From a virus (taxonomy: Duplodnaviria; Heunggongvirae; Uroviricota; Caudoviricetes): 64,000 nt of DNA. Below are positions 5,147-62,937 of the stretch, one piece after another (the stretch's first letter is position 1; the number at the start of each line of letters is the position of its first letter). The position numbers and the translations under genes are program-made. The notes beneath the pieces are model-generated. The model searched no databases. It was not told the DNA's origin and saw nothing but the letters and a program-made list of their open reading frames with translations. Location of the stretch: positions 36,145 through 100,144 of the IMG/VR virus record IMGVR_UViG_3300019935_000001; one strand, written 5' to 3'.

Positions 5147-5170
5147 TATATAAGTCAGCTATTACTTATA
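5147..5170. promoter_or_regulatory. Palindromic promoter/operator element upstream of the cobT-like gene (TATATAAGTCAGCTATTACTTATA)
   Basis: Family member 20 nt before the ATG at 5189. Confidence 0.5.
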
Positions 5171-5188
5171 TTAAAGACGAGAGCGAAT

Positions 5189-7360
5189 ATGAACGGAAAG
5201 CAAAAACGTATACAGGTGATCAGAGAAGCGATGCTCAAGGTGGCCCGAATTATGGCCGGTCGTGGAATCAAGATCACTCAGGCGGGCACTGGTGCTTTTG
5301 TTCGGTATAACAGTCACACTGGCTGTATCGAAAGGATCAACATTCCGATGATCCCGGACGATGCCAGCGAAGATTTGATCCACGCAACGCATGGTTTCCT
5401 GGATCACGAGATCGGGCATGTGCTTTTTACTGAGTACGAATGCTTTGCAAAAGCGAACAGGGCCAAATGCGGCGTCTTGTTCAACATTGCGGAAGACACC
5501 TATGTTGAGCGAATGATGCAGTCCGAGTTCACAGGTTCAATCAGTAACCTGGGCAAGTCATGCCAAATCATGACTGAAAGGTACATTGAGCCGAAGCTCC
5601 GGGAGCTGCTGGCGCACACCGTTCCAACCGAAAAGGATTGGTGGGGGCTGTTATGTGCAACCTCTATCCGGGCAATAGCCGGGCAGGAGCACTTCATCGA
5701 TTACATGAACCAGGACGATAAGTGGGATCTGATCCCGAACTTCGGAAAGGTTCTGCGAAAGCACGAAGCTGAGATCAAGGCGATCAGTAGTTCACAGGAT
5801 TCGTATGAAGTGGCATTGAAGATCAAACAGGACATGCTGGCAGCTGAGCCCGAGGAGCAGGACAGTGAGCCAGACCAGTCCGGCGGTGACGATCAGCAGA
5901 GCGGTGGAGAAGGTAAAGCTGAAAAGCCGCAGGGTGACAGTGAAGGCGAAACCGATGATGGCACCCGAGCAGACGATACCTTCTCGAAAGGTGAAGGTGA
6001 AAGCTCTGGCGAAGAAGAAAAAGATGATTCTTCTTCATCTAGTAGCAACACACAACATAACAAAGACAGTGAAGATGATGACCAGTCAGACGAATCGGAT
6101 GCTGATAGCGATGACTCAAAGGGCGAGTCCGGCAGTGCTGGCTCCGATAGCGCTGAAGAAGGTGATGGTGAATCCGACGAAGGCCCTGGTGCCGGTGATA
6201 GTTCGGGGGATGGTTCAGACGATGATGAAGACTCTGAATCAGAAGGCAGATCAGGGGGTGCAGGCTCGTCAGCTGGCGGCGATGACGCAGGTGAAGGCGG
6301 CGATAGCGAGATTGATGCAGATGATGTGATTAATGACCCGATGGCTCCGTTGCTGACTGAATCAGAGGTGGAGAGCATGGGTGAAGACTTCGACGATGCG
6401 ATGACAAAGGTTATCGGCGAGATGTCAGCTGATGCACTTAGAGGCTCTGAAGAATATGTGCCGTTCACACGCGACTGGGACGTTATCGAGCCACTGAAGC
6501 TATCAAGAAACTACGATCCGAATCTGGCCGACAAGGTTGCTGATACAGTCAATTACATGGTTGGCACGATGGCGAAAAGTCTGGAGCGTGCATTTCGTGC
6601 AGCCAACCGATCCCGCTGGGAAGGCGGTAAGAAGTCTGGCCGTATTAACAGCGCCGCACTATCCCGATTACTGGCAAACGACCCACGGGTGATGCGTACC
6701 CGCCAGGAGATGAAGACTCGTGATGTAGCTGTTTCTCTATTGGTGGACTGCTCCGGCTCTATGAGTGGGAAGAAGATGGAGGTTGCGTGTCAGACTGCGT
6801 GGGCGCTGGGCGAGGTGCTATCAAAGCTGAATTTGCCTTGTGAGATACTGGGGTTCACAACCTGCAGAATCAAAAACCAGTTCGACCATTTGGAGAAGGA
6901 GCTGGCTGATGTATTCCGTGACGGTACAGGTCAGCAATTCAGCAGGTTCGAGCCGATCTATATACCTATATTCAAATCATTTGATGAGCGGTTTGGTACG
7001 GCAGCTAAAGCACGCCTTGCGGATGCCGCATACGAGGGTATGCGGCGGAAGATGAACTGCAATATTGATGGCGAATCTCTGCTGTACGCAGCCGAGCGCC
7101 TGCGGAAGCGCCCGGAGCCAGGAAAGGTAATGATTGTGTTGTCAGACGGAGCCCCGGCCGGTGTAGGTAAACAACTTGAAGCTCACCTGAAGAAGGTGGT
7201 CAAAGATCTCAATACCGAAGGCATCAACACTGTCGGGATCGGCATCATGAGTCAGGCGGTGAGATCTTACTACCCCCGCCATGTAATCCTGAACAAAGTA
7301 GAGGACCTCCCAAAGGCAGTTGTAGGGGAGCTGCGGGAGGCAATTCTGGCGAAAGACTGA
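5189..7360 (+). CDS. CobT-like protein with C-terminal VWA domain and long acidic low-complexity linker
   Basis: 723 aa. N-terminal CobT-like region. D/E/S-rich low-complexity segment (nt about 5850-6330). C-terminal VWA domain with MIDAS motif DCSGSMSG. Paired with a CobS-like AAA ATPase. Confidence 0.75.
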   Translation: MNGKQKRIQVIREAMLKVARIMAGRGIKITQAGTGAFVRYNSHTGCIERINIPMIPDDASEDLIHATHGFLDHEIGHVLFTEYECFAKANRAKCGVLFNIAEDTYVERMMQSEFTGSISNLGKSCQIMTERYIEPKLRELLAHTVPTEKDWWGLLCATSIRAIAGQEHFIDYMNQDDKWDLIPNFGKVLRKHEAEIKAISSSQDSYEVALKIKQDMLAAEPEEQDSEPDQSGGDDQQSGGEGKAEKPQGDSEGETDDGTRADDTFSKGEGESSGEEEKDDSSSSSSNTQHNKDSEDDDQSDESDADSDDSKGESGSAGSDSAEEGDGESDEGPGAGDSSGDGSDDDEDSESEGRSGGAGSSAGGDDAGEGGDSEIDADDVINDPMAPLLTESEVESMGEDFDDAMTKVIGEMSADALRGSEEYVPFTRDWDVIEPLKLSRNYDPNLADKVADTVNYMVGTMAKSLERAFRAANRSRWEGGKKSGRINSAALSRLLANDPRVMRTRQEMKTRDVAVSLLVDCSGSMSGKKMEVACQTAWALGEVLSKLNLPCEILGFTTCRIKNQFDHLEKELADVFRDGTGQQFSRFEPIYIPIFKSFDERFGTAAKARLADAAYEGMRRKMNCNIDGESLLYAAERLRKRPEPGKVMIVLSDGAPAGVGKQLEAHLKKVVKDLNTEGINTVGIGIMSQAVRSYYPRHVILNKVEDLPKAVVGELREAILAKD

Positions 7361-7372
7361 TTTACCTGTAAA

Positions 7373-7411
7373 AACAGAACAAGAAAGTTGAGTCCCCTTG
7401 CTCTGTTTTTT
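7373..7411 (+). terminator. Rho-independent terminator after the cobT-like gene
   Basis: Stem AACAGAACAAG / CTTGCTCTGTT followed by a T6-7 run. Confidence 0.55.
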
Positions 7412-7414
7412 ACA

Positions 7415-7446
7415 ATGTAAGCTCTTACTTAGCAATTAAGTAGTAA
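7415..7446. promoter_or_regulatory. Palindromic-family element variant upstream of the cobS-like gene (ATGTAAGCTCTTACTTAGCAATTAAGTAGTAA)
   Basis: TAAGCTCTTACTTA core plus TAAGTAGTAA. Followed by the leader GACACACTAGAGACGG. Confidence 0.4.
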
Positions 7447-7471
7447 CGACACACTAGAGACGGACAGAAGA

Positions 7472-8683: not shown

Positions 8684-8693
8684 GGAGCGCGTC

Positions 8694-9269
8694 ATGACAC
8701 GACCACAAAATGCACCAGGCTGTTACGGCGTGGGCATTGCCTCCATGAAGAGTCCTGTCTGTAAAGAATGCGCAGCTCGTGAGGGTTGCGCAGAACGAGC
8801 TGTAGAGAACCTGCAGCTCGCTTCCGAGACGGTTGATGTAACCGATTACCTCGCAGTACATGGCCTGGCGCCAAAGCATAAGGGCGAGATGCCCCGCCAC
8901 TATCTAGCAAAGGTGAAAGTCCGGAAGGCGACTCAGCAGGAGCTGAGCATGTTCACAACTATGCCCGCAAAGGCTCGATCCATTGCAGAGTCATTGGTGA
9001 AGAAGAACATCTGTCTTCACACGAGCCTATCAACGAACCAGAACCCCTTTAACACAAACAAACCTCAGTACCTGAAGCCCGTATTCGACATGATACTGAA
9101 CTCCGGGGCGGTGTCCCGCCGCTCGATTATCGACGCGATCCGCTTATCTGGCAGCTCTGCTGCAACTCAGCGATCTCAGCTGTCAACTGCAATAGGGCTA
9201 CTGGAAGGCACCGGAGTCCTGATCAGAGATGGCGCTGAAAATTACAAGGTAGCAAACCGTGACATTTAA
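8694..9269 (+). CDS. Hypothetical protein with N-terminal Cys cluster (zinc-ribbon-like) and C-terminal wHTH-like region
   Basis: Start moved to ATG 8694 (AGGAG RBS at 8682-8686). Cys pairs CYGVG..CKEC..C. Confidence 0.45.
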   Translation: MTRPQNAPGCYGVGIASMKSPVCKECAAREGCAERAVENLQLASETVDVTDYLAVHGLAPKHKGEMPRHYLAKVKVRKATQQELSMFTTMPAKARSIAESLVKKNICLHTSLSTNQNPFNTNKPQYLKPVFDMILNSGAVSRRSIIDAIRLSGSSAATQRSQLSTAIGLLEGTGVLIRDGAENYKVANRDI

Positions 9270-12200
9270 CCTGACGCACTACATTGGTTGCCGCACCCAC
9301 TTCAGTCTGGGCGAAAGCATCCTGTCCCCTAAGCGGGCCGTTAATGAGCTGTCCGGCATTGCGCCGAGCATGACGATTACCGACCTGAACTCTGTAAATG
9401 CTCTGCCGAAGTCCTACAAGGAGGCGAAGAGCGACGATTTGAATCTGAATTTTGGCGCTGTCTTTAAGGTCGTTGATGACCTGGAGTGGCGGAAGCCAAA
9501 GAAGGGTGAGAAAAAGACAGTTAACCATTTCTTCTCACCTCGACTGATCGCCAAGAATGTAGATGGCATGAAGGACATCATGCACTTGCTGTCCGTATCG
9601 AATGATGCAGACCACTTCTACATGACACCACAATGCTCCATTGAGGAGCTGATCGAGGCAGCTTCACGCGGCAACGTGTACGTGACCACCGGGGACACGG
9701 ATTCGCTGTTTGCGCACCCGGAATACAGAACAAAGCTAGTGCAGCTGGTACGCGCTCTGAAAGCGTCTGATTTGCTGTTTGAAGTCGTTCCAGTCTGCAC
9801 GGCATATTATGACCGTCTTAACGAAACGACGATCAGAGTTGCAGAGAGACTGTCTGCAGCCATGATCGTCACGCGACCGATCTATTACAGCTCCAGCATG
9901 AGCGGCACCCGCAACGCCATGTACTGCGTGAAGAATCGTAGCCAGGTAACAGAGCGCTGGCGCTCCGAGCCTGCAGTGAACAACCTGCACCCCCTGGTTG
10001 CTGCAGACATGGAGCAGGAGCTGAGCAACCTGATAGATCGAATGGTGCTGCGCGACCTGGATCGTGATGCTGTGACTGAAGCCCTGCACCGCGCTGTCGA
10101 TACCACCAACGCTCTGCCTGAAAAGCTGAACTACGCCTGGGAACCATATGACATCTGTCTACCTTCCATGAGTGATGATCCGTTTGGTGGGCTGGTAGAG
10201 ATCGTAAAGCAAGGCTGGACAGACCGGATCGAAAAGGTGGTATACGGGTTCCAACCAGATCAGAGCCAGCTACCGGAGTATCGGGAGCGCCTGAAGTACG
10301 AACTATCTGTCTTGAAGCGCATGGGCTTTGAGAACTACTTCCTTCTGGTGCATCAGGTGGTGTCGCAGGCTAAATCCATGAACATCATGGTAGGCCCGGG
10401 ACGAGGATCTGTAGGTGGATCACTCGTCGCATTTTTGATGGGGATCACCGATGTTGACCCTATCCGCTTTGGCCTGATCTTTGAACGATTCATCAACCCG
10501 GATCGACTCGACCTTCCTGATGCCGACCTCGACTTTATGTCCTCCCGCCGTGAAGACATCATTAAATGGTTGGTCAAAGAGTATGGCCAGGATTATGTGT
10601 GTGGCATCAGTAACTACGGTGAGCTTGGTGCATCTTCGGCACTAAGGAGCGCAGGTAAGATCCACGGCCTGACCGAAACCGATGTTTCATGCTCCAAACA
10701 GGTGCCGAAAGAGCACGGTTCCAGCAAGTCACTGGAAGAAGCGAGAGAAGAGGTTCCGGCAATCAAGGTCTTCGCAGATAAGCACCCGGAAGTGTGGGCA
10801 GACGCCTGCAACCTGCAGGGCATCTTCAACGTTTACGGCCAGCACGCTGCAGGTGTTGTAGTGGCCGGCGAACCCATCATTGAACGTGCTGTGGTTGAAG
10901 TCCGCAAAGGCGGTCAGCTCTGCAACTGGGACAAAAGCGTGGTCGAAGAGTTCGGCCTGGTTAAGCTCGATGTGTTGGGCCTGAGTAACCTGGATGTACT
11001 GCGCCTGGCAAAGGACTACATCAAAGAGCGTCATGGCGTAGCAATCGACTACGAGGATGTTCCGCTGGATGATCCGGACGTTCTGGCTGCATTCGGTGAG
11101 GGCAAGACAAACGCCGTGTTCCAGTTCGAGTCTGGCGGTATGAAGGGCCTGCTGAAGTCACTGGCAGAGTCCGGAAGCCTGACGTTTGAAGACATCGCAG
11201 CGGCAACCGCTCTATTCCGTCCGGGCCCAATAGACGCTGGCCTGATGGATCAGTATGTCGCCATCAAAAACGGCAACATGACAGAGACGTACCCGCATCC
11301 GATTTGTGAAGGCGCGCTGCGAGAAACATACGGGGTAATGGTCTATCAGGAGCAGGTAATGCAGATCGCTCGGGATCTGTCGGGCTTCTCGATGGCTGAA
11401 GCTGACAAGCTGCGTAAAGCGATCGGTAAGAAAGACGCCGACCTGATGGCATCAATGGGCGAGAAGTTCGTGCAGGGTGCTCAGGAGTCGGGCATGGCCG
11501 AAGTATCTGCACAGGCATTGTGGGATGACATCCTCGGCTTCGCGGCTTACTCCTTCAACAAGTCTCACTCTGTCGCCTACACGATGATCTCCTACCTGAC
11601 GATGTGGCTGAAGGTAAAGTACCCGGCAGAGTTCTTTGCCGCCTCAATGTCGATCCTGAAAGAAGAGAAGCTGCCTGGCCTGGTGCGTGACTGTACCGAA
11701 GCTGGCTTGATCGTAGTGCCCCCGGACATTAACCGCTCCACTGACAGGTTCGAGATTGGCTATGACGGTGCCAGACAGTGTGATTCTCTGATTATCCCGT
11801 TCCAGCGATTGAAGGGTCTATCCGAGAAGGCGAGCGCGGCGATTGTCGAGGCCCGTGAGAAGCGGAAAGAAGAGCAGGGCGATAGTCGCTTTGTTTCAAA
11901 GAATGACTTCCTGGGCTATGTGGTGAAGCGGGTGTGCAATGTCCGGGTACAAAGTGCCCTGGATGCGGTCGGTGCTTTCGCGGAAATCGAAGGTCAGATT
12001 CCAGCTCTGCACCCGGATCGAATCAAAGATCAGAAGACCCTGCTACCGGGACTGATCGCCAGCAATGTGAAGGCGGACAGAAAGATCGACCTGTCACCTT
12101 TCGTTCGGCGGGAGCTGGTCGGGCTGATGCAGGAAGCAAAAGACTGCTGCGAAACCTTCAAGGGTGAAACCGTTGTCGGCCCAGCAATGGCTAAAGGTCG

Positions 12201-12660: not shown

Positions 12661-12905
12661 AGATCTATGTGAAAATTGTAGTAATGATCCTGCTGTTTGT
12701 GTCAATGGTATCATCTCTACAGCTCAGTATTGCCGTGGCCACGTTTGTGGCATCGGGTATTGTAAGCGGGTTGGTATTTGGCGTGATGCCGGGCGGTGAC
12801 AACCGATACCTTTGCAAGTTTATAGTGTTGTGCGCAGCTGTAATGGCTTACTGGGGCATGATTGTTACCTTGGTTATTCTCGCTTCTTTATACCTAAATA
12901 AATAA
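12657..12905 (+). CDS. Small integral membrane protein
   Basis: 82 aa, two to three hydrophobic helices. ATGA start/stop overlap with dnaE. Confidence 0.45.
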   Translation: MKIYVKIVVMILLFVSMVSSLQLSIAVATFVASGIVSGLVFGVMPGGDNRYLCKFIVLCAAVMAYWGMIVTLVILASLYLNK

Positions 12906-12922
12906 GTCAGAACTTACTTTTA
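12902..12922. promoter_or_regulatory. Copy of the genome-wide palindromic promoter/operator element (ATAAGTCAG-N2-CTTACTTTTA)
   Basis: Matches the TAAGTCAG..CTGACTTA family. Followed by a 12-bp-stem hairpin (12924-12960) and the conserved ACACAC..GAGAC leader of the 12987 gene. Confidence 0.5.
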
Positions 12923-12986
12923 ATCGACGCTGCTTTTTATTAGTATAAGCAGCGTCGATTGAGACAACACACACGAGAGACAAGCT

Positions 12987-13603: not shown

Positions 13604-13625
13604 GCTCTATAAATAAGTCAGATCT
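13604..13625. promoter_or_regulatory. Palindromic promoter/operator element (ATAAGTCAGATCTTACTTATAA)
   Basis: Member of the repeated TAAGTCAG/CTGACTTA family, 70 nt upstream of the SSB gene. Confidence 0.5.
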
Positions 13626-13695
13626 TACTTATAATTCGTTTTGTCACTGACTGACATACACGAAAACACAACACTACTGAACAAGGCTTAACACT

Positions 13696-16671: not shown

Positions 16672-16674
16672 GCC

Positions 16675-19214: not shown

Positions 19215-19745
19215 ATGATTGATACCAATGTCAGAGCAGTAAAGCCGAGTGAGTCCGGGTGGTCGCTATCTGTTGACCGGGATCTCTGTGGGCACTGCGG
19301 GAAACAAAGCACCTGTGAGTCACTGGGCTCCTTGAACAGCTGGCGAGAACAGCATGGGCAAACTATTCGCCTGAAAGAGTGCGGCGGGTACTCATATCCG
19401 ATTCTGTTTGTAGATCCGACAGGCACCGATGGCGAGTTCAACACGATCCGCCTGGGTGAAGCCTGGGCTGGCCGCCTGAGTCCGGGGGTAGAGGTCACGC
19501 TGATAGATAAGCCGGGTAATGTGCTGGGCACAGCGGTGGTAGAGCGGGTACATACGGGAGACAAGGAGGAGGTGATTCGAGAGCACGCCTACCAGAACCA
19601 CCTGTATGTAGAGTCAGGCATGGGGCAGGAGGAGGCCGGTGCTGACCTGCTGAGAAGACTGCCGAGCATTTATGGCAACCTGATTATGAAAAGCAACACG
19701 CGAGCCACAGTAATCTACCTCAAGAACAAGGATCTATTAAAGTAA
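19215..19745 (+). CDS. Hypothetical protein
   Basis: 176 aa with a long 5' region and no family recognised. Confidence 0.45.
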   Translation: MIDTNVRAVKPSESGWSLSVDRDLCGHCGKQSTCESLGSLNSWREQHGQTIRLKECGGYSYPILFVDPTGTDGEFNTIRLGEAWAGRLSPGVEVTLIDKPGNVLGTAVVERVHTGDKEEVIREHAYQNHLYVESGMGQEEAGADLLRRLPSIYGNLIMKSNTRATVIYLKNKDLLK

Positions 19746-19908
19746 GGGCTTACTTATCAATATGAGCCGCATTATGATTCTGGACTCACTCAAAAACATC
19801 GGCGAAACGGGGCTTGTAGCCTTACTCGGTGCTTTCGCTTTTGGTAGTGAAATCATCGGTATTCTTTTCTAATTACCATTCGATTCCCCAAGGAAAAGCG
19901 TTTATTTC

Positions 19909-19944
19909 GTAAGTCAGAGCTTATAAACTTATGCTCTGACTTAC
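19909..19944. promoter_or_regulatory. Extended palindromic promoter/operator element (GTAAGTCAGAGC-TTATAAACTTAT-GCTCTGACTTAC)
   Basis: 11-bp inverted arms of the TAAGTCAG family. Followed by the ACACGCACACAGAGGGGAC leader of the sbcD-like gene. Confidence 0.5.
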
Positions 19945-27354: not shown

Positions 27355-27377
27355 AATAAGTAGTAACTGACTTATAA
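27355..27377. promoter_or_regulatory. Palindromic promoter/operator element upstream of nrdA (ATAAGTAGTAACTGACTTATAAA)
   Basis: Member of the TAAGT..CTGACTTATA family. Followed by the leader CACACACATGGGAGAC. Confidence 0.45.
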
Positions 27378-30890: not shown

Positions 30891-30915
30891 GTAACTAAGC
30901 GCTGACTTACTAACT
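30891..30915. promoter_or_regulatory. Palindromic promoter/operator element variant (TAGTAACTAAGCGCTGACTTACTAA) inside an 11-bp-stem inverted repeat
   Basis: AGCGCTTAGTT ... AACTAAGCGCT inverted repeat plus CTGACTTAC half-site, 20-40 nt before the 30933 gene. Confidence 0.4.
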
Positions 30916-35288: not shown

Positions 35289-35329
35289 CATCCATAGCTT
35301 ACTTATTGAGACACCAGTATCTGATCTTT

Positions 35330-35353
35330 AGAATGCTTTATATAAGTAAGCTA
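35330..35353. promoter_or_regulatory. Palindromic promoter/operator element (TATATAAGTAAGCTATTACTTACC)
   Basis: Family member located 35 nt upstream of the 35388 gene. Confidence 0.45.
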
Positions 35354-35387
35354 TTACTTACCAATACACGCATAGCAGAGATAAATC

Positions 35388-38706: not shown

Positions 38707-38728
38707 GATAAGTCAGTTATAACTTATC
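38707..38728. promoter_or_regulatory. Palindromic promoter/operator element (GATAAGTCAGTTATAACTTATC) plus a second partial copy at 38786-38806
   Basis: Sits in the AT-rich leader region before the long small-gene operon starting at 38826. Confidence 0.5.
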
Positions 38729-38825
38729 ACGCAATAAATTATTAATATAAATTTGTATGTTTTCTTTTGTTTGTACTAACTTACTTATATAATAAATTCT
38801 CTAACACACACAGAGACAGACCGAA

Positions 38826-40851: not shown

Positions 40852-40926
40852 TACTCACCTTAGTCAATTTGAGAGAATTACATTGTCAGAGCTGACTTAG
40901 CTTTTGCACACATACAGGAGCAAACT

Positions 40927-48068: not shown

Positions 48069-48086
48069 TATAAGTCAGAGCGCTGG
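48069..48086. promoter_or_regulatory. Palindromic-family promoter/operator half element (ATATAAGTCAGAGCGCTG)
   Basis: TAAGTCAG half-site, 200 nt upstream of the 48286 gene. More ATAGAG/ATAGTA units lie nearby. Confidence 0.35.
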
Positions 48087-49240: not shown

Positions 49241-49502
49241 CCTTCAAATCGGGTAGGTTTACCTTGGCAACACCTCCCAAGACCCTCGCTTCACTGCAGG
49301 CAAAGACAGTCTTCCTAAACGTGGCTACGTGCACGTATGAGGTCGTCACAGGATTACCTGCATCATTTGCTGTCTGACAGATCAAGTCCCGTCATATGGC
49401 CCCCTATGTGGCTTCTGAGAGGTCTTCCAGCCGCCAGATCTGATTCGCTATAGCAGTGTTGATAAAATGTAAGCTCAAACTTACAAACACATAGAAACTG
49501 CT

Positions 49503-50490: not shown

Positions 50491-50730
50491 ATTCTGTCTC
50501 TATATGTGTGTTGTGTCCGGGCACCGTGCCCCGACTGCATGTGCATATTAATAAGCTCTGACTTACTTTGCAACTCTTTTTAGATAAATAAAAAACAAAA
50601 AAATATTAAAAAAGTGTTGCGTTAAAAAATGGATTCGGTACTATACATCACATCGGCGACACGGGGAGCACATAGCCCGGCCCGATGTCAAACGTGACCA
50701 AAAAACTGAATCAGACAGAGAGTAGAAATT

Positions 50731-52076: not shown

Positions 52077-52168
52077 GTTTTACCGTCTCCTGTTGAATAT
52101 AAGTCAGAACTGACTTATAGTAGGCTTGTTCCGTTCGGAACGTTCAAAACTGTACTACTCTGTCTGTA

Positions 52169-52197
52169 GCCACCTGAATAAGGTGGCCCATTTTTTC
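52169..52197 (+). terminator. Rho-independent terminator
   Basis: GCCACCT-GAATA-AGGTGGC hairpin followed by CCATTTTTTC. Confidence 0.65.
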
Positions 52198-52235
52198 TGC
52201 TTTTGTGCCGTCTCAGTTGCCTGAGAAAGGCGTGA

Positions 52236-55095: not shown

Positions 55096-55098
55096 GAT

Positions 55099-55344
55099 AT
55101 GGACACAATAGGCCGAATGGTGTCGCAGTGGGCGACTGAAGATAAGGAACAGATCAATGCGCTGGTTGAGCAGCATGGGGATCTGGTAGTGGAAGTCACC
55201 GGTGCCGACGATGGTTGTGTTTATGCCACCGCGGGCACCTATCGTCTGTCTCTGAACCCGGAGGCTGTCAACGAAGAGGTAGACAACAAGTCTATTAGCG
55301 ACATTCGCCACCTGATCCTGAAAGTGTACCCAACGGTCGATTAG
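55099..55344 (+). CDS. Hypothetical small protein, middle gene of the DGQHR-ATPase module
   Basis: 81 aa. 3-nt spacing to both neighbours. Confidence 0.4.
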   Translation: MDTIGRMVSQWATEDKEQINALVEQHGDLVVEVTGADDGCVYATAGTYRLSLNPEAVNEEVDNKSISDIRHLILKVYPTVD

Positions 55345-55345
55345 A

Positions 55346-56185
55346 TTGGTAACAATGAAAATCAGAAGACTGAAGATCAACAACTTCCGGGCATTCGGCC
55401 AGTTTGAATGCGAGTTCGAGCCTGGGATCACCGTTCTGACAGGGCTGAACAGCTCAGGAAAAACAGCGGTTCTGAAAGCCATCATCGTGGCAGCTGGCCA
55501 GGACAGAAAGATTCAGACTTCTGATATTCGCCAGACTCGTTCCTCTGCAGGTTCGGGTCTGATCTCTACAGAGCACCACCTTCCTGTGAACATTGAGGTG
55601 TGGGAAGACAGCGACACAGACCCGATCCTGGTCGCATCCCGTCAAAAGCTGAAAGGCAGAACCTCTCAAGCCGGATACATTGGCCCAATCTGCTACTACG
55701 ACAGTGGCAGGCGGAATATCGACAATCCCTCACCTGAATCCCTGGCCCTGGCCAGACAGGCACTGGACATCGTTCTGGAGCCTGTTGGCTGGAGCAACGT
55801 GCGGTACATTCCCGGTATCGATCAGATCTGTGCAGACCATGACGCTCAGGGTACAGCCCCAGTGGCCGCAATAGGTGGAATCGGAAGTGTCATTGATATG
55901 GTGGCCGGGATCGCCCAGCAGGGCAGCCAGCTGGCTTTGATCGACGGGATAGATTTACACCTGCACCCCAAATGGCAGCAGATGATCCTGCCTGGTCTGG
56001 CAGCGGCCTTTCCCGATCTGCAGCTTATCGTGACGACTCACAGCCCATTAGTGCTGTCTACTGTGAGCCGGAGTCAGATCCGGGTGCTTCCAGATTTCGG
56101 AAATGGAGAGTGCGCAACCGTCCCAGCATGTGAGACGCTGGGCAAAGCCTGCGACGACCTGCTCACTGAGGCGATGGGAAATTAA
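55346..56185 (+). CDS. AAA_21/ABC-type (SMC/RecF-like head) ATPase, 279 aa, with Walker-B Glu replaced by Gly
   Basis: N-terminal IRRLKINNFRAFG..LTGLNSSGKT (Walker A). LALIDGIDLHLHP (Walker B, with D-G where AAA_21 has D-E). H-loop TTHSPLVL. Confidence 0.65.
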   Translation: MVTMKIRRLKINNFRAFGQFECEFEPGITVLTGLNSSGKTAVLKAIIVAAGQDRKIQTSDIRQTRSSAGSGLISTEHHLPVNIEVWEDSDTDPILVASRQKLKGRTSQAGYIGPICYYDSGRRNIDNPSPESLALARQALDIVLEPVGWSNVRYIPGIDQICADHDAQGTAPVAAIGGIGSVIDMVAGIAQQGSQLALIDGIDLHLHPKWQQMILPGLAAAFPDLQLIVTTHSPLVLSTVSRSQIRVLPDFGNGECATVPACETLGKACDDLLTEAMGN

Positions 56186-56520: not shown

Positions 56521-56892
56521 CTACTCAGCTAGATATTTTTCAAGTATCTCTGGTATACCCAGGCTTATAGCCAGCTTCAGAAGGGACTCTTCCAGAACCT
56601 CCGGCTCTGCCTTTACTGCGAACTCAACCTTCCGAGCCTTCCAGTCAAAGGTCTGTGGCATGTTGGAAACAACAACGCAGGCCTGGTCCAGATTGTTGAC
56701 CTTCACCTCTTCAGTGCCACCGTAAATCGAAGTGCTCACCGGCAGCACAGTGGCGCGTCCGGATTTGTTTTGTTCCTTTGTTGAGATAACAAGTGCGGGC
56801 CTGCGCTTGCCAATCTCTTTTCCTGCCTTCGGGTCAAACGTCACGATTACTAAATCGCCCTGACCCGGGATGTATCGACTTACCGATCCCAT
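56521..56892 (-). CDS. pemK: PemK/Kid/MazF-family endoribonuclease toxin
   Basis: 123 aa. GDLVIVTFDPKAGKEIGKRRPALVIS parallels Kid GEIWLVSLDPTAGHEQQGTRPVLIVT. Confidence 0.8.
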   Translation of the reverse strand: MGSVSRYIPGQGDLVIVTFDPKAGKEIGKRRPALVISTKEQNKSGRATVLPVSTSIYGGTEEVKVNNLDQACVVVSNMPQTFDWKARKVEFAVKAEPEVLEESLLKLAISLGIPEILEKYLAE

Positions 56893-57167
56893 TCTGTCTC
56901 CACAGTTTCAAATAGATCGTCAGCCCGAAGGTTAGCCGGAGTCATCCCCGCAATCAGTTCATCCTGAGTGAAGGGAAGTTTATACCTCGGCTTCGCGCGC
57001 GGCGTGACAGCCTTAATGATGATCTCAGTACCTTGCGCCGCGATTTCTACTTCAGCGCCTTTTGTGATACCGGCTCTTTTCATCAGCGCAGCGGGCAGCC
57101 TAATAGCAGAGCTGTTGCCCCACTGACTGACCTGGCCAATGACCCTTCGGGTTTCTCGTGTCGCCAT
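56880..57167 (-). CDS. pemI: PemI/Kis/MazE-family antitoxin (AbrB/SpoVT fold)
   Basis: 95 aa. WGNSSAIRLPAA swapped-hairpin motif. Overlaps pemK by 13 nt. Confidence 0.75.
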   Translation of the reverse strand: MATRETRRVIGQVSQWGNSSAIRLPAALMKRAGITKGAEVEIAAQGTEIIIKAVTPRAKPRYKLPFTQDELIAGMTPANLRADDLFETVETEWDR

Positions 57168-57295: not shown

Positions 57296-58270
57296 TCAAG
57301 AAGAGGTTGATTCTTCCGCATCCGGTATGCGCTGCTCCAGATTCTTGATGGTTGCCAGGTGAGCCCGGATTTCTTCCTTCAATTGATCGACAGTTTCTCT
57401 GGCCTGATCCCGCTGGTTTGCTGCGATGTCGAGCCGGGTGTTCAGGCTGCTGATCTGCTCGCTCTGGCTATCGATACGCTCACTGAGACTTTTCTTAACC
57501 ATCTCGTGACCAGATGTCAGCTCAGCAAGTAGGGTCGCATGAGCGTCTTTGGTTTCGGCAAGGACTTGGCTGTGCATCTCTCTCAGCTCCTCCTTCTGGT
57601 CGGTCATGGCCATCTGGCGCTCTGTCTCCAGGGATCTGCAGTGCAGCTCGTGCTTTCCTGTTAGGTCTGCCAATTCATTCCGCGCTACCTGAAGCTGGGC
57701 CTCAGCGGTCTGTGCCCTGGCCTGCACCTTGTCGTGCCGCTCGCCCACTGTTTTGAGTTGCCCCTGCAGCTCGCTTATGGTGCGGAGATTGCCGCTCTCT
57801 GTACGTTGGAGCGCCTGCACTGCTGCCTCCCGCTCCTCTAACGTTTTGCCAAGGCTGTCTACTTTCGCCTCCAGCTCTGACACTGCATCAGCTGCATCAG
57901 AAAGCTCTGCCTCTGCACTCTCTTGCCTCTCGCGTGCATCCTTGACGGCCTCCGTTGTACGCCGCTCAGCGGTCATCACGGCGATATGGTTGACCCGGAC
58001 TGCCATCGCTCGCATCTGATCGCCCATGCCAGTGACCACTTCCTCAAGCGTCTCCATCACATCGACCGGAAGTTCATGCACCAGTTCAGCTTCTGCAGCT
58101 TCGCTGACCTCCCCAGTTTCGTGACCTTCCCAGATAGCCTTGATGCGCTGGACGTTTCCTCCACCCATGTGGTTTCGGATACCAAAAGCGGTGACGCGCT
58201 TACCCTCTTGCTGCAGCCGGACTCCGGCCTCCACGATCATGTCATCTGTAAATTCCGCTGGCCGTGCCAT
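57296..58270 (-). CDS. kfrA: KfrA-like plasmid protein (N-terminal DNA-binding domain plus long coiled coil)
   Basis: 324 aa. N-terminus MARPAEFTDDMIVEAGVRLQQEGKRVTAFGIRNHMGGGNVQRIKAIWEGH resembles the KfrA_N domain. The remainder is Ala/Glu/Gln-rich coiled coil. Confidence 0.6.
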   Translation of the reverse strand: MARPAEFTDDMIVEAGVRLQQEGKRVTAFGIRNHMGGGNVQRIKAIWEGHETGEVSEAAEAELVHELPVDVMETLEEVVTGMGDQMRAMAVRVNHIAVMTAERRTTEAVKDARERQESAEAELSDAADAVSELEAKVDSLGKTLEEREAAVQALQRTESGNLRTISELQGQLKTVGERHDKVQARAQTAEAQLQVARNELADLTGKHELHCRSLETERQMAMTDQKEELREMHSQVLAETKDAHATLLAELTSGHEMVKKSLSERIDSQSEQISSLNTRLDIAANQRDQARETVDQLKEEIRAHLATIKNLEQRIPDAEESTSS

Positions 58271-58330
<60 letters not shown>

Positions 58331-58355: not shown

Positions 58356-59069
58356 CTAATTCCCTTGAGAGCGGCTTCTTTCTATCCTTCTACTGCGCTC
58401 TATCTCCCAATCATCAACAGGGTCTGACTTTGCCCAAGCATCAAACAGCTTTCGCTGCTTCTTGCTGATTCGAATCCCATACTTCTCTGACATATAAAAA
58501 TATGTCCGGGCTATATCCCCACGAATGTGGGGGGCTGGCTCAACAATTCTGGACTTGAAGTCAACTTCAACATCGCATGCGCCATATACGCGACGCTCAC
58601 CCGCGATCATTCCATATCGGTAGTTTGACCGATCACCATTAACTTCACCGATGGCCGGTACTAAATTGTACATGTCAGCCTCCATTTTCTTGAACCGGGC
58701 ATCTTTCCGACAGGCTTTTCGCCCCCCTTCTTGCCAACACTGTAATTGGTGACCAAATTCCCATGCAGGCACCAAATGCTCCCACTCTATCCGGGCCGCC
58801 CTCTTCGCTTGCTTTCGAGGTGTATAACCGCAGCTTTCCCAGTTTGGGGTCAGGTGTTTTCTGGAGCTCCCAGGCTTGTTCTTTAGGGAGTAATCACAGC
58901 CACAGTAGAACGAAACTTGATGGTCAGCATATATCTGCTTGGCGAGAATCTTTTTAGACTTAGAAAACGAGGGGTCTGCAGCTACCACTGAAGGTAGAGC
59001 AAACAAAATAATGCAGGTAACAATCTTAATCTTCATCCAGCAGCCTTCCCTTATCCGCTCATTAGACAA
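58356..59069 (-). CDS. endA: Secreted endonuclease I (EndA/Vvn/Dns family)
   Basis: Signal peptide [19 protein letters not shown] (translation probably starts at this Met, nt 59036). Endonuclease-I hallmarks [19 protein letters not shown]. Confidence 0.8.
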
Positions 59070-59114: not shown

Positions 59115-59142
59115 ACAAAAAAGGGGCCTCGCAAGGCCCCGT
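59115..59142 (-). terminator. Rho-independent terminator between the palindromic element and endA
   Basis: GGGGCCT-CGCA-AGGCCCC hairpin with a U7 run on the minus strand. Confidence 0.65.
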
Positions 59143-59204: not shown

Positions 59205-59226
59205 TATAAGTCAGTTCTGACTTAGT
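59205..59226. promoter_or_regulatory. Palindromic promoter/operator element (ATATAAGTCAGTTCTGACTTAG)
   Basis: Perfect 8-bp arms TAAGTCAG/CTGACTTA. Confidence 0.5.
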
Positions 59227-59248
59227 TTCAAGCGACTTTTGTTGCCTA

Positions 59249-59722: not shown

Positions 59723-59734
59723 ATTATTTCCCTC

Positions 59735-60058: not shown

Positions 60059-60068
60059 AGGCTTTCTC

Positions 60069-60919: not shown

Positions 60920-61149
60920 TTCACCACCTTCACCAGCTGATCGAAGCCGCCGATGAACTCGTCATCAACGAAGACTGCAGGGAACGTACTGAAGCCCGGT
61001 GTCTTCTGCTGCAGCTCTTCCAGCTGATAGTCTGAGCCCAGCTGCAGGTATGTGTAGTCGAGGTCGCGGATGTCGCAGACCTGCTTTGCATTGTCACAGT
61101 ACGGGCAAGAGGTCTTGCCGTAGATTTCAATCTTCATATGGTTCCTCAA
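60916..61149 (-). CDS. Glutaredoxin (NrdH/Grx-like)
   Basis: 77 aa. Active-site CPYC near the N-terminus (KIEIYGKTSCPYCDNAK). Confidence 0.75.
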   Translation of the reverse strand: MRNHMKIEIYGKTSCPYCDNAKQVCDIRDLDYTYLQLGSDYQLEELQQKTPGFSTFPAVFVDDEFIGGFDQLVKVVK

Positions 61150-62858
61150 ACGGCCTGGAAGCCGTACTTCTGAAAGTTGAAAGGTGCCTTGACGACGTTT
61201 TCGGCAAAGCCCGGTGTAGAGTTGACGATCTCCCGGCGGGCCATTGCGTGGCCTTTCAGGTGCTTGTTGTCGCCATCTTCAAAGTCGATGATGAAGCAGA
61301 CATTCGGGCCAGACTTCTTCGCTCGAAGGCCACGACCGATACGCTGGCGCATTGCCACTTCTGCTTTGCCACCACCGGCCAGAATCACCATTCCGACAGC
61401 AGGCACATCGACACCGACATCCAGGATGGTCGAACCGATCAGGACATCGATCCTTCCGGCTCCCAGATTGTCCAGGGAAGACTGGCGGCTATCCTGCCTG
61501 TGCTCACCACTGATGAACTCGGCGTTCAGCCCGGCTGCTTTCAGCATCTTCAGGAGGCGTTTGCCGTGGGCTGTGTGCTGGATCAGGATCATCACTGGCA
61601 GGCCGTACTTCTTAGCCCGCTGAGCTTCGGAAACGATGAAGGCATTCCGGCCGTCACTCTCAACCACACCGACCTTATAAGCCCGCTGCCAGGGTGTACC
61701 CCGGAACAGGGTTTTAGGTTTTTCAGCGCTGTGGTAGTAGAAATACGGTTTGGCCAGGATGCCTTTGTCGATCAGGTCTTTCTCGCTGATCTGAATGCCG
61801 ATAGGTCCGGTAACGGCCATAAGGCGCATGTTGGCCTCTTCGTCATCCTTCATGAACGGAGTGGCAGTCAGGGCCATCCTGTAAACAGCGTTATGGCACT
61901 GATTCAGGATGTCGTAGAAGCCGTTACCGGATACCTCGTGCGCTTCCTCCAGGGTCACAAACTCCATGGAGCGAAGGAACTCGATAGTTTCGGCACGGCG
62001 ATCAGCCTGACGTTGGACGGCGGCCTTGGCCTTTTTGGCAATCTCTTCGTGCGGGTACTTCGAGCGAACCTTCTTTTCGATGGACTGACGGTACGCTTTG
62101 ATCTGATCCCGAATGTGCTGAGGGGCAATCTTCAGGGCCTGATCGGACGTTGGCAGGTTTTTCTTCTTGAAAATGGTTTCGACAGTCTCTGTGACCTCTT
62201 TTTCGATGGCCTCCAGCTGCTTATCGACCTCCTTTTCAAAAGTCTTCTTCTCCAGTCGTGATGTCAGCGTATCCACGATGGCGAAGTTGATACCGGCCGG
62301 TTCCGGGTTCCACGTTCCGTCACCCAGGATGCCGATCGGTCGATTCTGCTCGCCCATTTGAGCGGCCATCTGGTACATCAGGGACTTCCGGGTCGTGATA
62401 AACAGAGTCGGTCGGTAGATGCGAGCACATGCAAGGCGGAAGATGCGGGACTTACCACCACCGGTGGCCACCCGGGCGATCATCGCCTTCAGATTCACCA
62501 GACGGCGAACCGTATCGAGCTGATATGCGTAGTTCGGATTCTCCGGGAAGTTATCGACCTTCGGGTTTTCCGGCCCCAGGGGCTCGGGAACCGACTTTCT
62601 GACAACCTTCGTGCGAACGCCGCGGGTTTCCAGCTTCTTTTTGATGTAGCGAACGAAGCCCGCCGGGAACGAATCCGTTTTCATCTGATAGAACGAGCTG
62701 TGACCGTCCCAGGAGCCGTTACTGAACATACTTGTGTGCTCGGCACCGGCCACCTTGTACGTCAGCAGATCACTGACGAGCAGACGCACATCGCGATCTG
62801 GGTTAACCAGCTTGGCGACAACTGCGTTGTGCTTGATTGTGGCGATTTTTCCTTTCAT
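61146..62858 (-). CDS. Superfamily-2 DEAH-box DNA helicase (UvsW-like)
   Basis: 570 aa. Motif I TGGGKS, motif II LEEAHE, motif III LTATP. C-terminal helicase domain. Confidence 0.8.
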   Translation of the reverse strand: MKGKIATIKHNAVVAKLVNPDRDVRLLVSDLLTYKVAGAEHTSMFSNGSWDGHSSFYQMKTDSFPAGFVRYIKKKLETRGVRTKVVRKSVPEPLGPENPKVDNFPENPNYAYQLDTVRRLVNLKAMIARVATGGGKSRIFRLACARIYRPTLFITTRKSLMYQMAAQMGEQNRPIGILGDGTWNPEPAGINFAIVDTLTSRLEKKTFEKEVDKQLEAIEKEVTETVETIFKKKNLPTSDQALKIAPQHIRDQIKAYRQSIEKKVRSKYPHEEIAKKAKAAVQRQADRRAETIEFLRSMEFVTLEEAHEVSGNGFYDILNQCHNAVYRMALTATPFMKDDEEANMRLMAVTGPIGIQISEKDLIDKGILAKPYFYYHSAEKPKTLFRGTPWQRAYKVGVVESDGRNAFIVSEAQRAKKYGLPVMILIQHTAHGKRLLKMLKAAGLNAEFISGEHRQDSRQSSLDNLGAGRIDVLIGSTILDVGVDVPAVGMVILAGGGKAEVAMRQRIGRGLRAKKSGPNVCFIIDFEDGDNKHLKGHAMARREIVNSTPGFAENVVKAPFNFQKYGFQAV

Positions 62859-62913
62859 TTCGGGCCTGTCTGGTGTCTGGACGCCTTGCCATTGGAAAGG
62901 CTTATAGAAATAA

Positions 62914-62937
62914 TAGTAAGTCAGTCCTTACTTATAG
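62914..62937. promoter_or_regulatory. Palindromic promoter/operator element (TAGTAAGTCAGTCCTTACTTATAG) in a divergent region
   Basis: Between the minus-strand helicase start (62858) and the plus-strand gene at 62962. Confidence 0.5.

Follow-up and report, generated by a model that had tools for sequence, protein, structure and literature searches.

A conserved palindrome precedes lytic gene blocks in a siphophage-like phage-plasmid and may be a global repressor operator

A palindrome of about 20 bases, TAAGTCAG-NN-CTGACTTA, precedes nearly all of the lytic gene blocks of a phage-plasmid. The window, by which we mean the whole 64,000-nucleotide stretch that was analysed, belongs to a nickie/RHEph10/SSU5-like siphophage; as it also carries a plasmid module (RepA, ParAB and a parS-like repeat) we call it a phage-plasmid. 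The motif is symmetric, conserved in relatives and associated across them with a gene for a helix-turn-helix (HTH) protein. On balance we lean towards a global operator that serves a lysogeny repressor and works in part as a transcription roadblock, with the HTH protein encoded at 4068-4502 as the candidate.

Copies of the palindrome and their distribution

In the form TAAGT(C/A)AG-NN-CT(G/T)ACTTA there are some 16-20 copies in the window, where about 0.2 are expected. Scoring with the 18-bp core TAAGTMAG-NN-CTKACTTA finds 16 intergenic sites with at most three mismatches (0.2 expected) and five sites with four mismatches (1.3 expected); at five mismatches the matches are indistinguishable from noise. 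Intergenic positions account for 22 of the 23 core matches with up to four mismatches, in a window that is 19% non-coding. The full 22-mer, allowing three mismatches, has six matches and none in 100 shuffles, and the 8-mer TAAGTCAG/CTGACTTA occurs 17 times in the window, 16 of them in the intergenic 19% (binomial P = 5e-11). The palindrome reported by a first-pass annotation is therefore real.

Most of the positions given by that annotation are good sites (5147, 7415, 12902, 19909, 27355, 30891, 38707, 40881, 50547, 52097, 59205 and 62914). Those at 13604 and 35330 exist, but are better placed at 13612 and 35341; the copies at 38786 and 49467 are present but weak (four mismatches), and 48069 is a lone half-site only. 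Missing from the list were the copy at 19739-19756 and a weak pair at 4620 and 4667. Most sites (19-66 nt) conform to the proposed distance of 20-110 nt from a start codon; 50548 (about 165 nt), 48071 and 59207 (136 nt, with a terminator between) do not. Both described hairpins are found, at 12921-12961 (dG -23.4 kcal/mol, z = -6) and 59123-59140. The ACACAC..GAGAC leader exists as well, but does not belong to the element: it is this genome's general ribosome-binding context, and genes inside operons, where no palindrome is present, have it too.

Table 1. Palindrome copies, candidate reader and plasmid module in the window
Position	Strand	Feature	Context
175..3826	-	Plasmid module without palindromes: RepA-like gene, parB, parA	parS-like repeat (46-bp x 2.5) at 1485-1600
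4068..4502	-	144-aa Cro/CI-type (XRE-like) HTH protein	candidate repressor
4620..4684	.	Two degenerate copies (4620-4637, 4667-4684)	3 mismatches each; 118-165 nt upstream of HTH gene 4068-4502
5151..5168	.	Copy TAAGTCAGCTATTACTTA	1 mismatch to core; intergenic; 20 nt 5' of cobT-like gene (ATG at 5189)
7414..7431	.	Copy AATGTAAGCTCTTACTTA	upstream of cobS-like AAA gene; overlaps -10 box and start region of TTGAGT-17-TACAAT (7388-7416)
12903..12920	.	Copy TAAGTCAGAACTTACTTT	abuts 12921-12961 hairpin, then gene 12987
13614..13631	.	Copy TAAGTCAGATCTTACTTA	upstream of gp32-like SSB gene; right end continues into TATAAT
19739..19756	.	Copy AAAGTAAGGGCTTACTTA	1 mismatch; overlaps stop codon of gene 19332-19745
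19910..19943	.	Perfect half-sites TAAGTCAG and CTGACTTA, 18 bp apart	upstream of sbcD
27357..27374	.	Copy TAAGTAGTAACTGACTTA	precedes nrdA
30892..30909	.	Copy TAACTAAGCGCTGACTTA	precedes gene 30933
35343..35360	.	Copy TAAGTAAGCTATTACTTA	upstream of 35388 and dnaQ; starts 9 nt past -10 box of TTGAGA-17-TAGAAT (35306-35334)
38709..38726	.	Copy TAAGTCAGTTATAACTTA	heads small-ORF block
38770..38787	.	Weak copy, 4 mismatches	right half CTTACTTA continues into TATAAT
40882..40899	.	Copy ATTGTCAGAGCTGACTTA	upstream of gene 40927
48071..48078	.	Lone half-site TAAGTCAG	within long non-coding stretch
49466..49483	.	Weak copy AATGTAAGCTCAAACTTA, 4 mismatches	a resembling variant also near 4800-4820
50548..50565	.	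Copy TTAATAAGCTCTGACTTA	
52100..52117	.	Perfect copy	exactly in spacer of TTGAAT-17-TATAGT (52093-52121, +); 23 nt upstream of minus-strand gene 51831-52076
59207..59224	.	Perfect core	in spacer of TTGAAA-17-TATATT (59231-59203, -)
62917..62934	.	Copy	between divergent helicase (-) and ParB_N-like (+) genes

The motif precedes lytic-type units, including replication and nucleotide-metabolism genes, and no palindromes occur within the window in RepA/ParAB, IS, SocA, resolvase, DndB-like/AAA or MazEF. It extends beyond the window, where it precedes terminase-small-like, portal and capsid genes. The motif therefore marks the whole lytic programme and not one temporal class, contrary to the single temporal regulon suggested earlier. 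Some sites have no obvious gene start downstream of them: one is 5 nt past the capsid stop codon, ahead of a terminator, and 19 fall between convergent ORFs.

Conservation and architecture of the site

Over 100 IMG/VR stretches have diverged versions of the motif in orthologous places, as do an Aeromonas plasmid, SSU5-like elements and the Rhizobium phage RHEph10, which has 30 sites. The core AGT(C/A)A-N4-T(G/T)ACT is common to the Rhizobium, enterobacterial and Aeromonas elements. The site at 62917 keeps its position in more than ten distant relatives and in RHEph10, and is half-conserved in SSU5. Phage nickie lacks the motif, the HTH gene and the rep/par genes.

In a symmetry analysis of 153 gene-oriented instances, out of 217 unique family sites, the half-sites and their flanks (a-w-w-R, core, Y-w-w-t) are symmetrically conserved and the central NN is free. 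At positions 6 (C/A) and 13 (G/T) the variants occur in free combination, hybrids such as TCAG..CTTA are common, and in lineage L330 all five sites are non-complementary hybrids. Watson-Crick excess is absent at flank offsets 1 and 3.

The register between palindrome and sigma-70-like hexamers is variable. Where good hexamers are present, the palindrome lies in the promoter spacer (52093 and 59231) or at about -8 to +20 of the expected start (7388, 35306 and 62886); the register varies in relatives too (e.g. L079:79 and L013:2457). Relatives also have the palindrome placed after the -10 box and ahead of the Shine-Dalgarno sequence. The window shows no excess of sigma-70-like promoters (8, 8 and 18 found, 13-15 expected). 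About 25 of 125 sites in the IMG/VR relatives lie 11-18 nt before an ATG, as do at least 10 of the 30 in RHEph10 at 9-17 nt before annotated starts, e.g. TTGATTGAggagacagcATG. In relatives the Shine-Dalgarno often starts directly 3' of the palindrome, so transcription must start within or upstream of it.

Because the flanks are symmetric, the half-site variants uncompensated, the sigma-70 register variable and the ribosome-binding site adjoining, the palindrome looks like a site at which a dimeric protein binds double-stranded DNA, and not like a promoter of its own. This favours the palindromic operator that the first-pass annotation had offered as its alternative. Its other proposal, in which the sigma-region-4-like ORF at 39399-39869 would read a promoter class of its own, is not supported: the motif is conserved in very distant relatives, whereas this ORF, an unlikely reader, has no detectable homologue among 5.8 billion proteins except a version of itself that is 99% identical. 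Nor were RNA polymerase or sigma genes found in the window, and in relatives the start cannot be downstream of the palindrome.

A candidate reader and the rival explanations

The HTH protein encoded at 4068-4502 is homologous to RHEph10 gp041 (E = 7e-15) and to CYRAN_45, a 'putative repressor' of the phage-plasmid Cyrano. In the Cyrano lysogen CYRAN_45 is transcribed 10-fold over the prophage background, and it is listed as the master repressor (PMC9928086). Homologues of the window protein have sub-threshold matches to HTH_3/HTH_26; the window protein matches no Pfam family, and AlphaFold modelled it poorly from the single sequence (pLDDT 59). The gene is syntenic in 74 of 80 relatives' loci, with a homologue no more than about 1 kb upstream of cobT. 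Homologues are confined to motif-bearing lineages, namely the RHEph10 group, SSU5-like elements, the contig L339, which carries the exact motif, and the Aeromonas plasmid pKAM329_1, which has a site 60 nt upstream of the HTH gene. The nickie group has none.

We infer that this protein binds the palindromes, and that it does so as a repressor in a lysogenic context. The palindromes would be operators for one phage-encoded dimeric HTH repressor, of which the Cro/CI-type protein, encoded beside the rep/par module and divergently from the cobT-dnaE operon, is the most likely candidate. Some 20 copies in the window, with others beyond it, would overlap or directly follow the weak core promoters of almost every lytic unit, from replication, recombination and nucleotide metabolism to small early ORFs, packaging, portal and capsid. 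At the few copies located at gene ends, bound protein would act as a roadblock against read-through transcription. In the plasmid-prophage state the occupied sites would hold the lytic programme off, and the plasmid-maintenance and cargo genes, being without sites, would stay on.

Some observations sit uneasily with a repressor. A recognisable -35 box is missing at most window sites, as would be expected of an activator-dependent promoter class resembling that of P1 Lpa, in which a phage activator or sigma-like factor replaces -35 recognition, the gene-proximal TA opens a -10 hexamer (TAnnnT) and transcription starts about 11 nt past the palindrome. In P1, Lpa binds a 9-bp inverted repeat at 11 late promoters (PMC10695390), and RHEph10 has a sigma factor of its own, gp045. 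The gene-proximal hexamer is TATAAT, TATAGT or TATATT at several strong sites (13614, 52100, 62917, 5151 and L203:18234), a perfect TATAAT continues from two Aeromonas sites, and only lytic genes are marked. We nevertheless consider such a class unlikely. The flank signal is mirror-symmetric and gives no direction, the 9-18 nt between palindrome and ATG in relatives leave no space for a downstream start, canonical promoters put the palindrome in the spacer or past the -10 box, and some copies are at gene ends or in convergent contexts. The window has neither a sigma/RNA polymerase gene nor a homologue of gp045. Depth of conservation is a further consideration: immunity repressors and the operators they bind usually change more quickly than the core has, and the predicted recognition helix differs under the same motif (GNNIAMIRQG in the window, PSMVNMWKAG in L339). 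It is therefore conceivable that the reader is a better-conserved protein, or a positive factor, and an essential lytic factor would fit.

The abutment on the Shine-Dalgarno, seen in many relatives, and the copies within longer hairpins (63891, 104326 and 57396 in RHEph10) leave room for a role at the RNA level, where a 5'-UTR hairpin by the ribosome-binding site would stabilise the mRNA, be a site of processing or act as operator for a translational repressor. Covarying flanks lengthen some copies into longer hairpins, flank offsets 2 and 4 show a modest excess of Watson-Crick pairs, and nickie has structure-conserved hairpins at equivalent positions. This account looks improbable, since the stem is conserved in sequence beyond complementarity with the loop free, positions 6/13 often clash (C-U and A-G), in L330 at every site, the halves are equally conserved with symmetric flanks, palindromes occur within untranscribed promoter spacers and an Rfam match is absent. 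More improbable still are dispersed centromere or silencing sites of the ParB family, read by the plasmid ParB (1601-2659) or by the ParB_N-like protein (62962-63648). The gene for the latter is invariably preceded by a copy, kept in more than ten relatives. ParB-family precedents are KorB (12 OB sites on RK2) and N15 SopB (four dispersed sopC sites), which bind dispersed palindromes and affect transcription. However, the plasmid ParB has its own centromere-like repeat of a 22-bp palindrome beside parB, at 1485-1600, and the ParB_N-like protein is equally conserved in the motif-less nickie (43% identity) and has a ParB_N/nuclease-type domain only, with no recognisable HTH.

Comparison with known systems

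The design of many sites for a single repressor is already known in other temperate phages. In Cluster A mycobacteriophages such as L5 and Bxb1 a single repressor has 20-30 short sites across early and late regions, mostly in short intergenic gaps, some in promoters and others ('stoperators') blocking elongation, and the motif drifts among lineages along with the repressor (PMC6550527). The palindromes resemble these in number, shortness, mostly intergenic placement, coverage of early and late regions and a promoter or presumed elongation-blocking position. The L5 sites, however, are asymmetric, 13-14 bp long, monomer-bound and oriented with transcription, whereas here we find an 18-26 bp dyad without orientation and a candidate of the Cro/CI type that is unrelated to L5 gp71.

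P1, also a plasmid prophage, controls the early functions among its 45 transcription units with one repressor on scattered sites (PMC10695390). The dispersed sites, here for a putative repressor, and the conserved inverted repeat are shared features, and no homology to P1 C1 or Lpa was found. The C1 operators are asymmetric 17-mers, and the early (C1) and late (Lpa) genes of P1 have different motifs, whereas one palindrome marks both classes here. The Streptomyces phage phiC31 also has conserved inverted repeats at many intergenic lytic positions: its highly conserved 17-bp repeats (CIRs) are bound by the c repressor and confined to the early region. Host phylum, sequence and repressor family all differ from ours.

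As proposed here, in lambda, 434 and P22 a dimeric HTH protein reads a dyad of about 17-18 bp with half-site centres one helical turn apart, and the repressor gene diverges from the lytic operon with operators between. The lambdoid phages have 3+3 operators at two promoters plus antitermination, whereas at least 20 autonomous sites are present here. Palindromic sites are also scattered over plasmids or phage-plasmids for RK2 KorB/KorA and N15 SopB, and coordinate many operons, as would the palindromes; those readers are of the ParB family, whereas here phyletic distribution and a separate parS speak against the ParB candidates. If one repressor does govern early and late genes alike, the temporal order of the lytic programme would need additional regulators.

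A palindrome repeated before lytic gene blocks

The palindrome is a genuine repeated element. We scored its 18-bp core as TAAGTMAG-NN-CTKACTTA, permitting the common A/T variant at positions 6 and 13, and took expected counts from a first-order Markov model of intergenic DNA. At three mismatches or fewer the window holds 16 intergenic sites, where 0.2 are expected. Five further sites have four mismatches (1.3 expected), and at five mismatches the matches are indistinguishable from noise. Of the 23 core matches at four mismatches or fewer, 22 are intergenic. The longer 22-mer TATAAGTCAG-NN-CTGACTTATA has six matches at three mismatches or fewer in the window and none in 100 shuffles, and the half-site 8-mer TAAGTCAG/CTGACTTA occurs 17 times, 16 of them in the 19% of the window outside gene calls (binomial P = 5e-11). 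The half-site forms TAAGTCAG, TCAGTCAA, TAAATCAA and TCAGTAAA differ at operator positions 2, 4 and 8.

Most of the positions listed in the first-pass annotation are correct, with the exception of 13604 and 35330, which are off by 8-11 nt. Those at 38786 and 49467 are weak copies and that at 48069 is a half-site alone, while a good site (19739) and two degenerate ones (4620 and 4667) were absent from the list. The ACACAC..GAGAC leader that was said to follow most copies does exist, but it is the general ribosome-binding context of this genome, and CACAC-N-(A/G)GAGAC-N5-8-ATG is also present at palindrome-free internal operon genes, e.g. 15616, 32546, 39888 and 42444. More broadly, many starts (also e.g. 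31574, 44764 and 46854) show the translation-initiation context CACAC(A)-N1-4-(A/G)GAGAC-N5-8-ATG, which consists of a CA-rich, enhancer-like stretch plus an extended Shine-Dalgarno sequence.

Sites precede the lytic-type units cobT, cobS, gene 12987, ssb, sbcD and nrdA, and also genes 30933, 35388/dnaQ, 38826 and 40927, the helicase operon and the ParB_N-like operon. No site was found within the window's RepA/ParAB, IS256-family element, SocA/Panacea, resolvase, DndB-like/AAA or MazEF genes. The Logan contig L203 prolongs the window rightwards with terminase, portal and capsid genes. Here too the motif precedes terminase-small-like, portal and capsid genes, and one copy is found 5 nt past the capsid stop codon, ahead of a terminator. 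The single temporal regulon that had been suggested from the genes in the window therefore does not fit. A minority of sites lie at gene ends (19739 in the window, L203:19189, and 19 convergent cases in the family set), and these would fit a roadblock role.

Features of the window discussed in the text, with coordinates and strand
Feature	Coordinates	Description
Tandem repeat	1485-1600	46 bp x 2.5, adjoining the parB stop codon; perfect 22-bp palindrome TTTGTCGTACCGGTACGACAAA in each unit
HTH gene	4068-4502 (-)	144-aa helix-turn-helix protein of Cro/CI type
Palindrome at -10 box	7388	Palindrome overlaps the -10 box
Cys-rich protein	8694-9269
DnaE (Pol III alpha)	9259-12660	C-terminal uracil-DNA-glycosylase-like domain, residues 984-1110
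Hairpin	12921-12961	Before gene 12987; 15-bp stem, TAGTAT in loop, dG -23.4 kcal/mol, z = -6
IS256-family insertion sequence	17076-18368	Between the recA-like operon and sbcD
Mutator-family transposase of this element	17105-18313 (-)
Terminal inverted repeats of this element	17076-17094, 18350-18368	19 nt
Palindrome-free cargo block	25390-25920 (-), 52236-52820 (-), 53593-56185 (+), 56521-57083 (-), 58356-59069 (-)	SocA/Panacea antitoxin-like, serine resolvase, DndB-like and AAA ATPase, MazEF, periplasmic Endonuclease I
Palindromes after -10 box	35306, 62886	Palindrome begins 3-9 nt past the -10 box
Sigma-region-4-like ORF	39438-39869
Palindromes in spacer	52093-52121 (+), 59231-59203 (-)	Palindrome lies exactly in the 17-bp spacer
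Perfect-palindrome loci	52093-52200 (+), 59231-59112 (-)	Intrinsic terminators at 52169-52187 and 59140-59123
Coiled-coil gene	57296-58270 (-)	324 aa
Microsatellite	58283-58322	(AACT)10 / AACTAACCAACT x 3.3, just upstream of the coiled-coil gene

Phage-plasmid relatives and conservation of the core

Megablast of two 8-kb pieces of the window found no nucleotide-level relatives in the phage collection, and relatives were identified via proteins. The window encodes CobT, CobS, DnaE with a UDG-like tail, a gp32-like SSB, FEN, RecA/UvsX, SbcCD and RuvC, together with NrdAB, ThyA, DHFR, DnaQ and a divergent helicase/ParB_N-like pair. Its gene order is that of Pseudomonas phage nickie and Rhizobium phage RHEph10, and more distantly that of the SSU5 phage-plasmids; DnaE is 47% identical to its nickie counterpart. 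An ENA contig, L207, prolongs the window leftwards. Compared with nickie, an extra module on the minus strand separates the ligase side from cobT; it carries a RepA-like initiator, ParB, ParA and the 144-aa HTH protein. The tandem repeat beside parB is likely to be the parS/centromere of this plasmid ParAB system. Because of this module and the parS-like repeat we conclude that the window belongs to a phage-plasmid. The same family includes circular plasmids of Aeromonas, 111-118 kb in length, and a link between RHEph10, nickie and the phage-plasmid groups AB and SSU5 has been described previously (PMC7969092). Two contigs with weak ParA matches (L110 and L019) proved to be unrelated phages.

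Some of the gene content is of separate interest. In the Aeromonas plasmid three separate genes, dnaE, one of NUMOD4 (homing-endonuclease) type and one of the UDG family, correspond to the DnaE-UDG region. The IS256-family element is 81% identical to an IS from a Photobacterium plasmid, and in the cargo block the DndB-like gene and the AAA ATPase are a possible defence pair.

The palindrome is widespread among the relatives. An exact-pattern scan of IMG/VR returned 112 stretches with the motif, and several contigs of ~116 kb hold 5-9 copies each; the proteins of the motif-bearing contigs share 35-50% identity with those of the window. At two mismatches or fewer the 112 stretches contain 233 sites, versus one after shuffling. 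The short divergent helicase/ParB_N-like intergenic region has kept its palindrome in more than 10 relatives. A separate exact-pattern scan of genome contigs gave scattered single matches (Bradyrhizobium and others), which look unrelated or due to chance.

Several lineages have their own version of the element. RHEph10 has T(A/C)A(A/G)T(A/C)AA-TA-TT(G/T)A(C/T)T(G/T)A, with 30 sites in 88 kb where 0.05 are expected, some of them at orthologous positions before cobT, cobS, the helicase/ParB pair and portal. In the Aeromonas plasmid pKAM329_1 the version is T(A/C)AGTAAA-NN-TT(G/T)ACTG(A/T), SSU5-like elements retain TAAGTAAG-type copies, and other lineages carry TCAGTCA..TGACTGA upstream of cobT. 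Across all lineages compared the core AGT(C/A)A-N4-T(G/T)ACT is invariant. The palindrome is absent from nickie.

Further inverted repeats were noted in this group. At the spot in nickie (L201/L202) orthologous to the hairpin before gene 12987, and in ~10 other intergenic regions, inverted repeats lie ~35 nt before the ATG, e.g. GTGCGCTC-TATAAAC-TGAGCGCAC. These nickie intergenic repeats are GC-rich and variable in sequence, and stand on both sides of a -10-like hexamer. The hairpin and the nickie repeats are a previously undescribed element that is conserved in structure. A second palindrome, GAAAACAAnTTGTTTAA, is abundant in SSU5-type phage-plasmids, i.e. SSU5 (L206) and Cyrano (L210). Many small early genes have it between their Shine-Dalgarno sequence and a GATAAT -10 box. 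The putative repressor gene CYRAN_45 has GGTAAGCACTTACC at its start.

A probable site on duplex DNA and its candidate readers

Is the palindrome read as DNA or as RNA? In order to examine its symmetry we used the 153 gene-oriented instances among 217 unique family sites. In these, conservation is mirror-symmetric over both halves and the four flanking positions, and the central NN is free. Positions 6 and 13 vary independently: non-pairing C..T and A..G hybrids are frequent in the window, and in lineage L330 hybrids are the sole form found. Mirror-symmetric conservation together with freely formed hybrids points to a dimeric protein on duplex DNA. Judged from these alignments, the pattern is the signature of such a protein reading half-sites one helical turn apart; the dyad, the half-site centres ~10 bp apart and the independently varying half-sites are as in the operator of a dimeric HTH protein. 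The first-pass suggestion of a palindromic operator for a dimeric global regulator is thus favoured by the symmetry and by the uncompensated half-site variants.

The opposite possibility, that the repeats act as hairpins in the 5'-UTR of the mRNA, draws on a subset of RHEph10 copies that are embedded in longer hairpins. This subset is also consistent with the Watson-Crick excess in the flanks, which is modest at offsets 2 and 4 and nil at offsets 1 and 3. However, the non-complementary hybrids are frequent, so stem complementarity is not maintained, and no Rfam family matches the window; we regard an RNA-level role as decidedly unlikely. An intrinsic terminator is opposed by the same hybrids, and no T-run follows the core.

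The other main class of explanation is that the palindrome specifies promoters, as was first proposed. With a 17-bp spacer, a -35 box (at least 4/6 matches) was found at just two of ~26 oriented sites, the family matrix has no directional -10 or -35 signal, and sigma-70-like promoter matches in the window are no commoner than in shuffles. We also tried the half-site CTGACT as a -35 box; there is no signal for a -10 box 17 bp downstream. At the five window sites with recognisable hexamers, and in relatives, the palindrome overlaps the predicted core promoter or start. Its register varies: it may lie in the spacer, overlap the -10 box or begin after it. The first and last of these arrangements recur in relatives, with TTGACA-tg-palindrome-TACTAT at L079:79 and TTGACT-N19-TATAAT-g-palindrome at L013:2457. 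In about 25 of 125 IMG/VR sites the palindrome is 11-18 nt before the ATG, often with the Shine-Dalgarno sequence directly after it, and at least 10 of the 30 RHEph10 sites are 9-17 nt before annotated start codons (e.g. gp171 TTGATTGAggagacagcATG, cobT and dnaB). On the IMG/VR contig L339, which carries the exact motif, 11 nt separate the end of the cobT copy from the ATG. Where the palindrome abuts the Shine-Dalgarno sequence, this layout means that transcription must start in or upstream of it, and so the palindrome of those relatives cannot be a promoter with its start downstream. It is predicted to sit where operators classically do, after the -10 box and ahead of the ribosome-binding site. 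A promoter element like those that Lpa activates in P1 has some probability, if a small one, given the variable register to -10-like hexamers, the Shine-Dalgarno sequences directly after the palindrome in relatives and the failure to find an Lpa homologue. A promoter for a T7- or N4-like RNA polymerase would be asymmetric, whereas the motif is symmetric, and no RNA polymerase domain was detected in the ORFs of the window.

The two perfect palindromes occupy the spacers of the window's best sigma-70-like promoters, and ~50-70 nt beyond each is an intrinsic terminator. These loci are candidates for small RNAs of ~70-85 nt or attenuated leaders, with no match in Rfam.

Which protein might read the sites? 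The sigma-region-4-like ORF that was put forward earlier has no detectable homologue: a word-index search of 5.8 billion proteins returned only a 99%-identical copy of itself. It is therefore a poor fit to a motif that spans orders of bacteria. The ORFs of the window yielded neither an RNA polymerase domain nor a sigma domain. RHEph10 encodes a sigma-70 region-2 sigma factor, gp045 (L209 12595-13230), between cobS and dnaE, with no counterpart in the window, nickie or SSU5. The Cys-rich protein was rejected as a reader, being equally present in the motif-less nickie. It is most improbable that the palindromes are ParB-type sites (parS or KorB-type), as the plasmid ParB has its own parS-like repeat beside parB and the ParB_N-like protein is also present in nickie. 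Nor is the palindrome known to fit the consensus of any of the host factors LexA, IHF, Fis, CRP and NrdR.

The HTH protein is the sole DNA-binding candidate examined that is distributed like the motif. By tblastn its homologues are confined to the RHEph10 group (gp041, E = 7e-15) and SSU5-like elements, with none in the nickie group. A scan of IMG/VR for close relatives gave no result, but a 3-sequence alignment used as query did recover homologues: one lies within ~1 kb upstream of cobT in 74 of 80 IMG/VR cobT loci, including that of L339, where two palindrome copies stand between the HTH gene and cobT. A copy also precedes the HTH gene of pKAM329_1, by 60 nt, and in the window the HTH-cobT intergenic region has two degenerate copies upstream of the HTH gene and a strong one upstream of cobT. 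In the Cyrano lysogen, expression of the homologue CYRAN_45 is 10-fold over the prophage background, and this protein is regarded as the master repressor (PMC9928086). This phyletic and syntenic association, together with the lysogen expression in Cyrano, makes the HTH protein the leading candidate.

Homologues of the HTH protein match Cro/C1-type HTH domains at sub-threshold scores, and the word-index protein search with the window HTH returned only near-identical copies of the query. The window protein shares no homology with SSU5_121, which is annotated as a repressor; a comparison with solved structures gave nothing significant, and its single-sequence AlphaFold model is poor (pLDDT 59). 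Two lineages with the same motif have different predicted recognition helices. A further caveat is that operator conservation this deep is unusual for immunity systems.

A proposed design of many operators and one repressor

We lean towards the palindrome being a global operator for a phage-plasmid repressor. One repressor bound at many scattered sites would silence the whole lytic programme of the plasmid prophage, and copies bound at gene ends or between convergent ORFs would act as transcription roadblocks. Less probable, and in our view unlikely, is that the palindrome is not an immunity operator but is recognised by a conserved transcription factor essential to the lytic cycle, or else has a dual use. 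With such a dual use it could be a symmetric site that specifies promoters in both directions, with the transcript forming a 5'-terminal hairpin before the ribosome-binding site. If true, an 18-bp unit would couple transcription control with mRNA stability or translation over the whole lytic programme, and either form would cover a phage-plasmid supergroup of alpha- and gammaproteobacterial hosts.

The design expected of a global operator has precedents. Phage phiC31 has conserved inverted repeats in a many-operators, one-repressor arrangement. In L5 and other cluster A mycobacteriophages the operators and stoperators are asymmetric and number 20-30 (PMC6550527), and P1 uses C1 and, in addition, has 11 late promoters that depend on Lpa and contain a 9-bp inverted repeat (PMC10695390). 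In each, one repressor likewise serves many scattered sites. However, L5 stoperators are asymmetric and oriented with transcription, whereas the element here is palindromic and orientation-free, and is not of the same family. The element differs in several ways: it is a symmetric dyad, marks early and late units alike and belongs to the SSU5/RHEph10/Aeromonas/nickie-like supergroup. We found no description of such a motif in the literature on this supergroup, and a full-text search with the motif strings gave primer-type noise only.

In enterobacteria and environmental Proteobacteria, phage-plasmids of the SSU5, RHEph10 and Aeromonas types often serve as carriers of cargo genes, and their lysis-lysogeny control is essentially uncharacterised. 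The core AGT(C/A)A-N4-T(G/T)ACT and the syntenic HTH gene by cobT provide a testable model for how elements of ~110 kb may silence ~20-30 lytic transcription units. As a sequence signature the motif can locate promoters of phage-plasmids in the supergroup, its lineage-specific changes offer a way to predict immunity groups, and it sets temperate members apart from virulent derivatives; nickie, for one, lacks the motif, the HTH gene and the plasmid genes. The palindrome would be a further example of the known many-operators, one-repressor design rather than a new principle or mechanism, and it supplies a testable regulatory model for a widespread and little-studied group of phage-plasmids.
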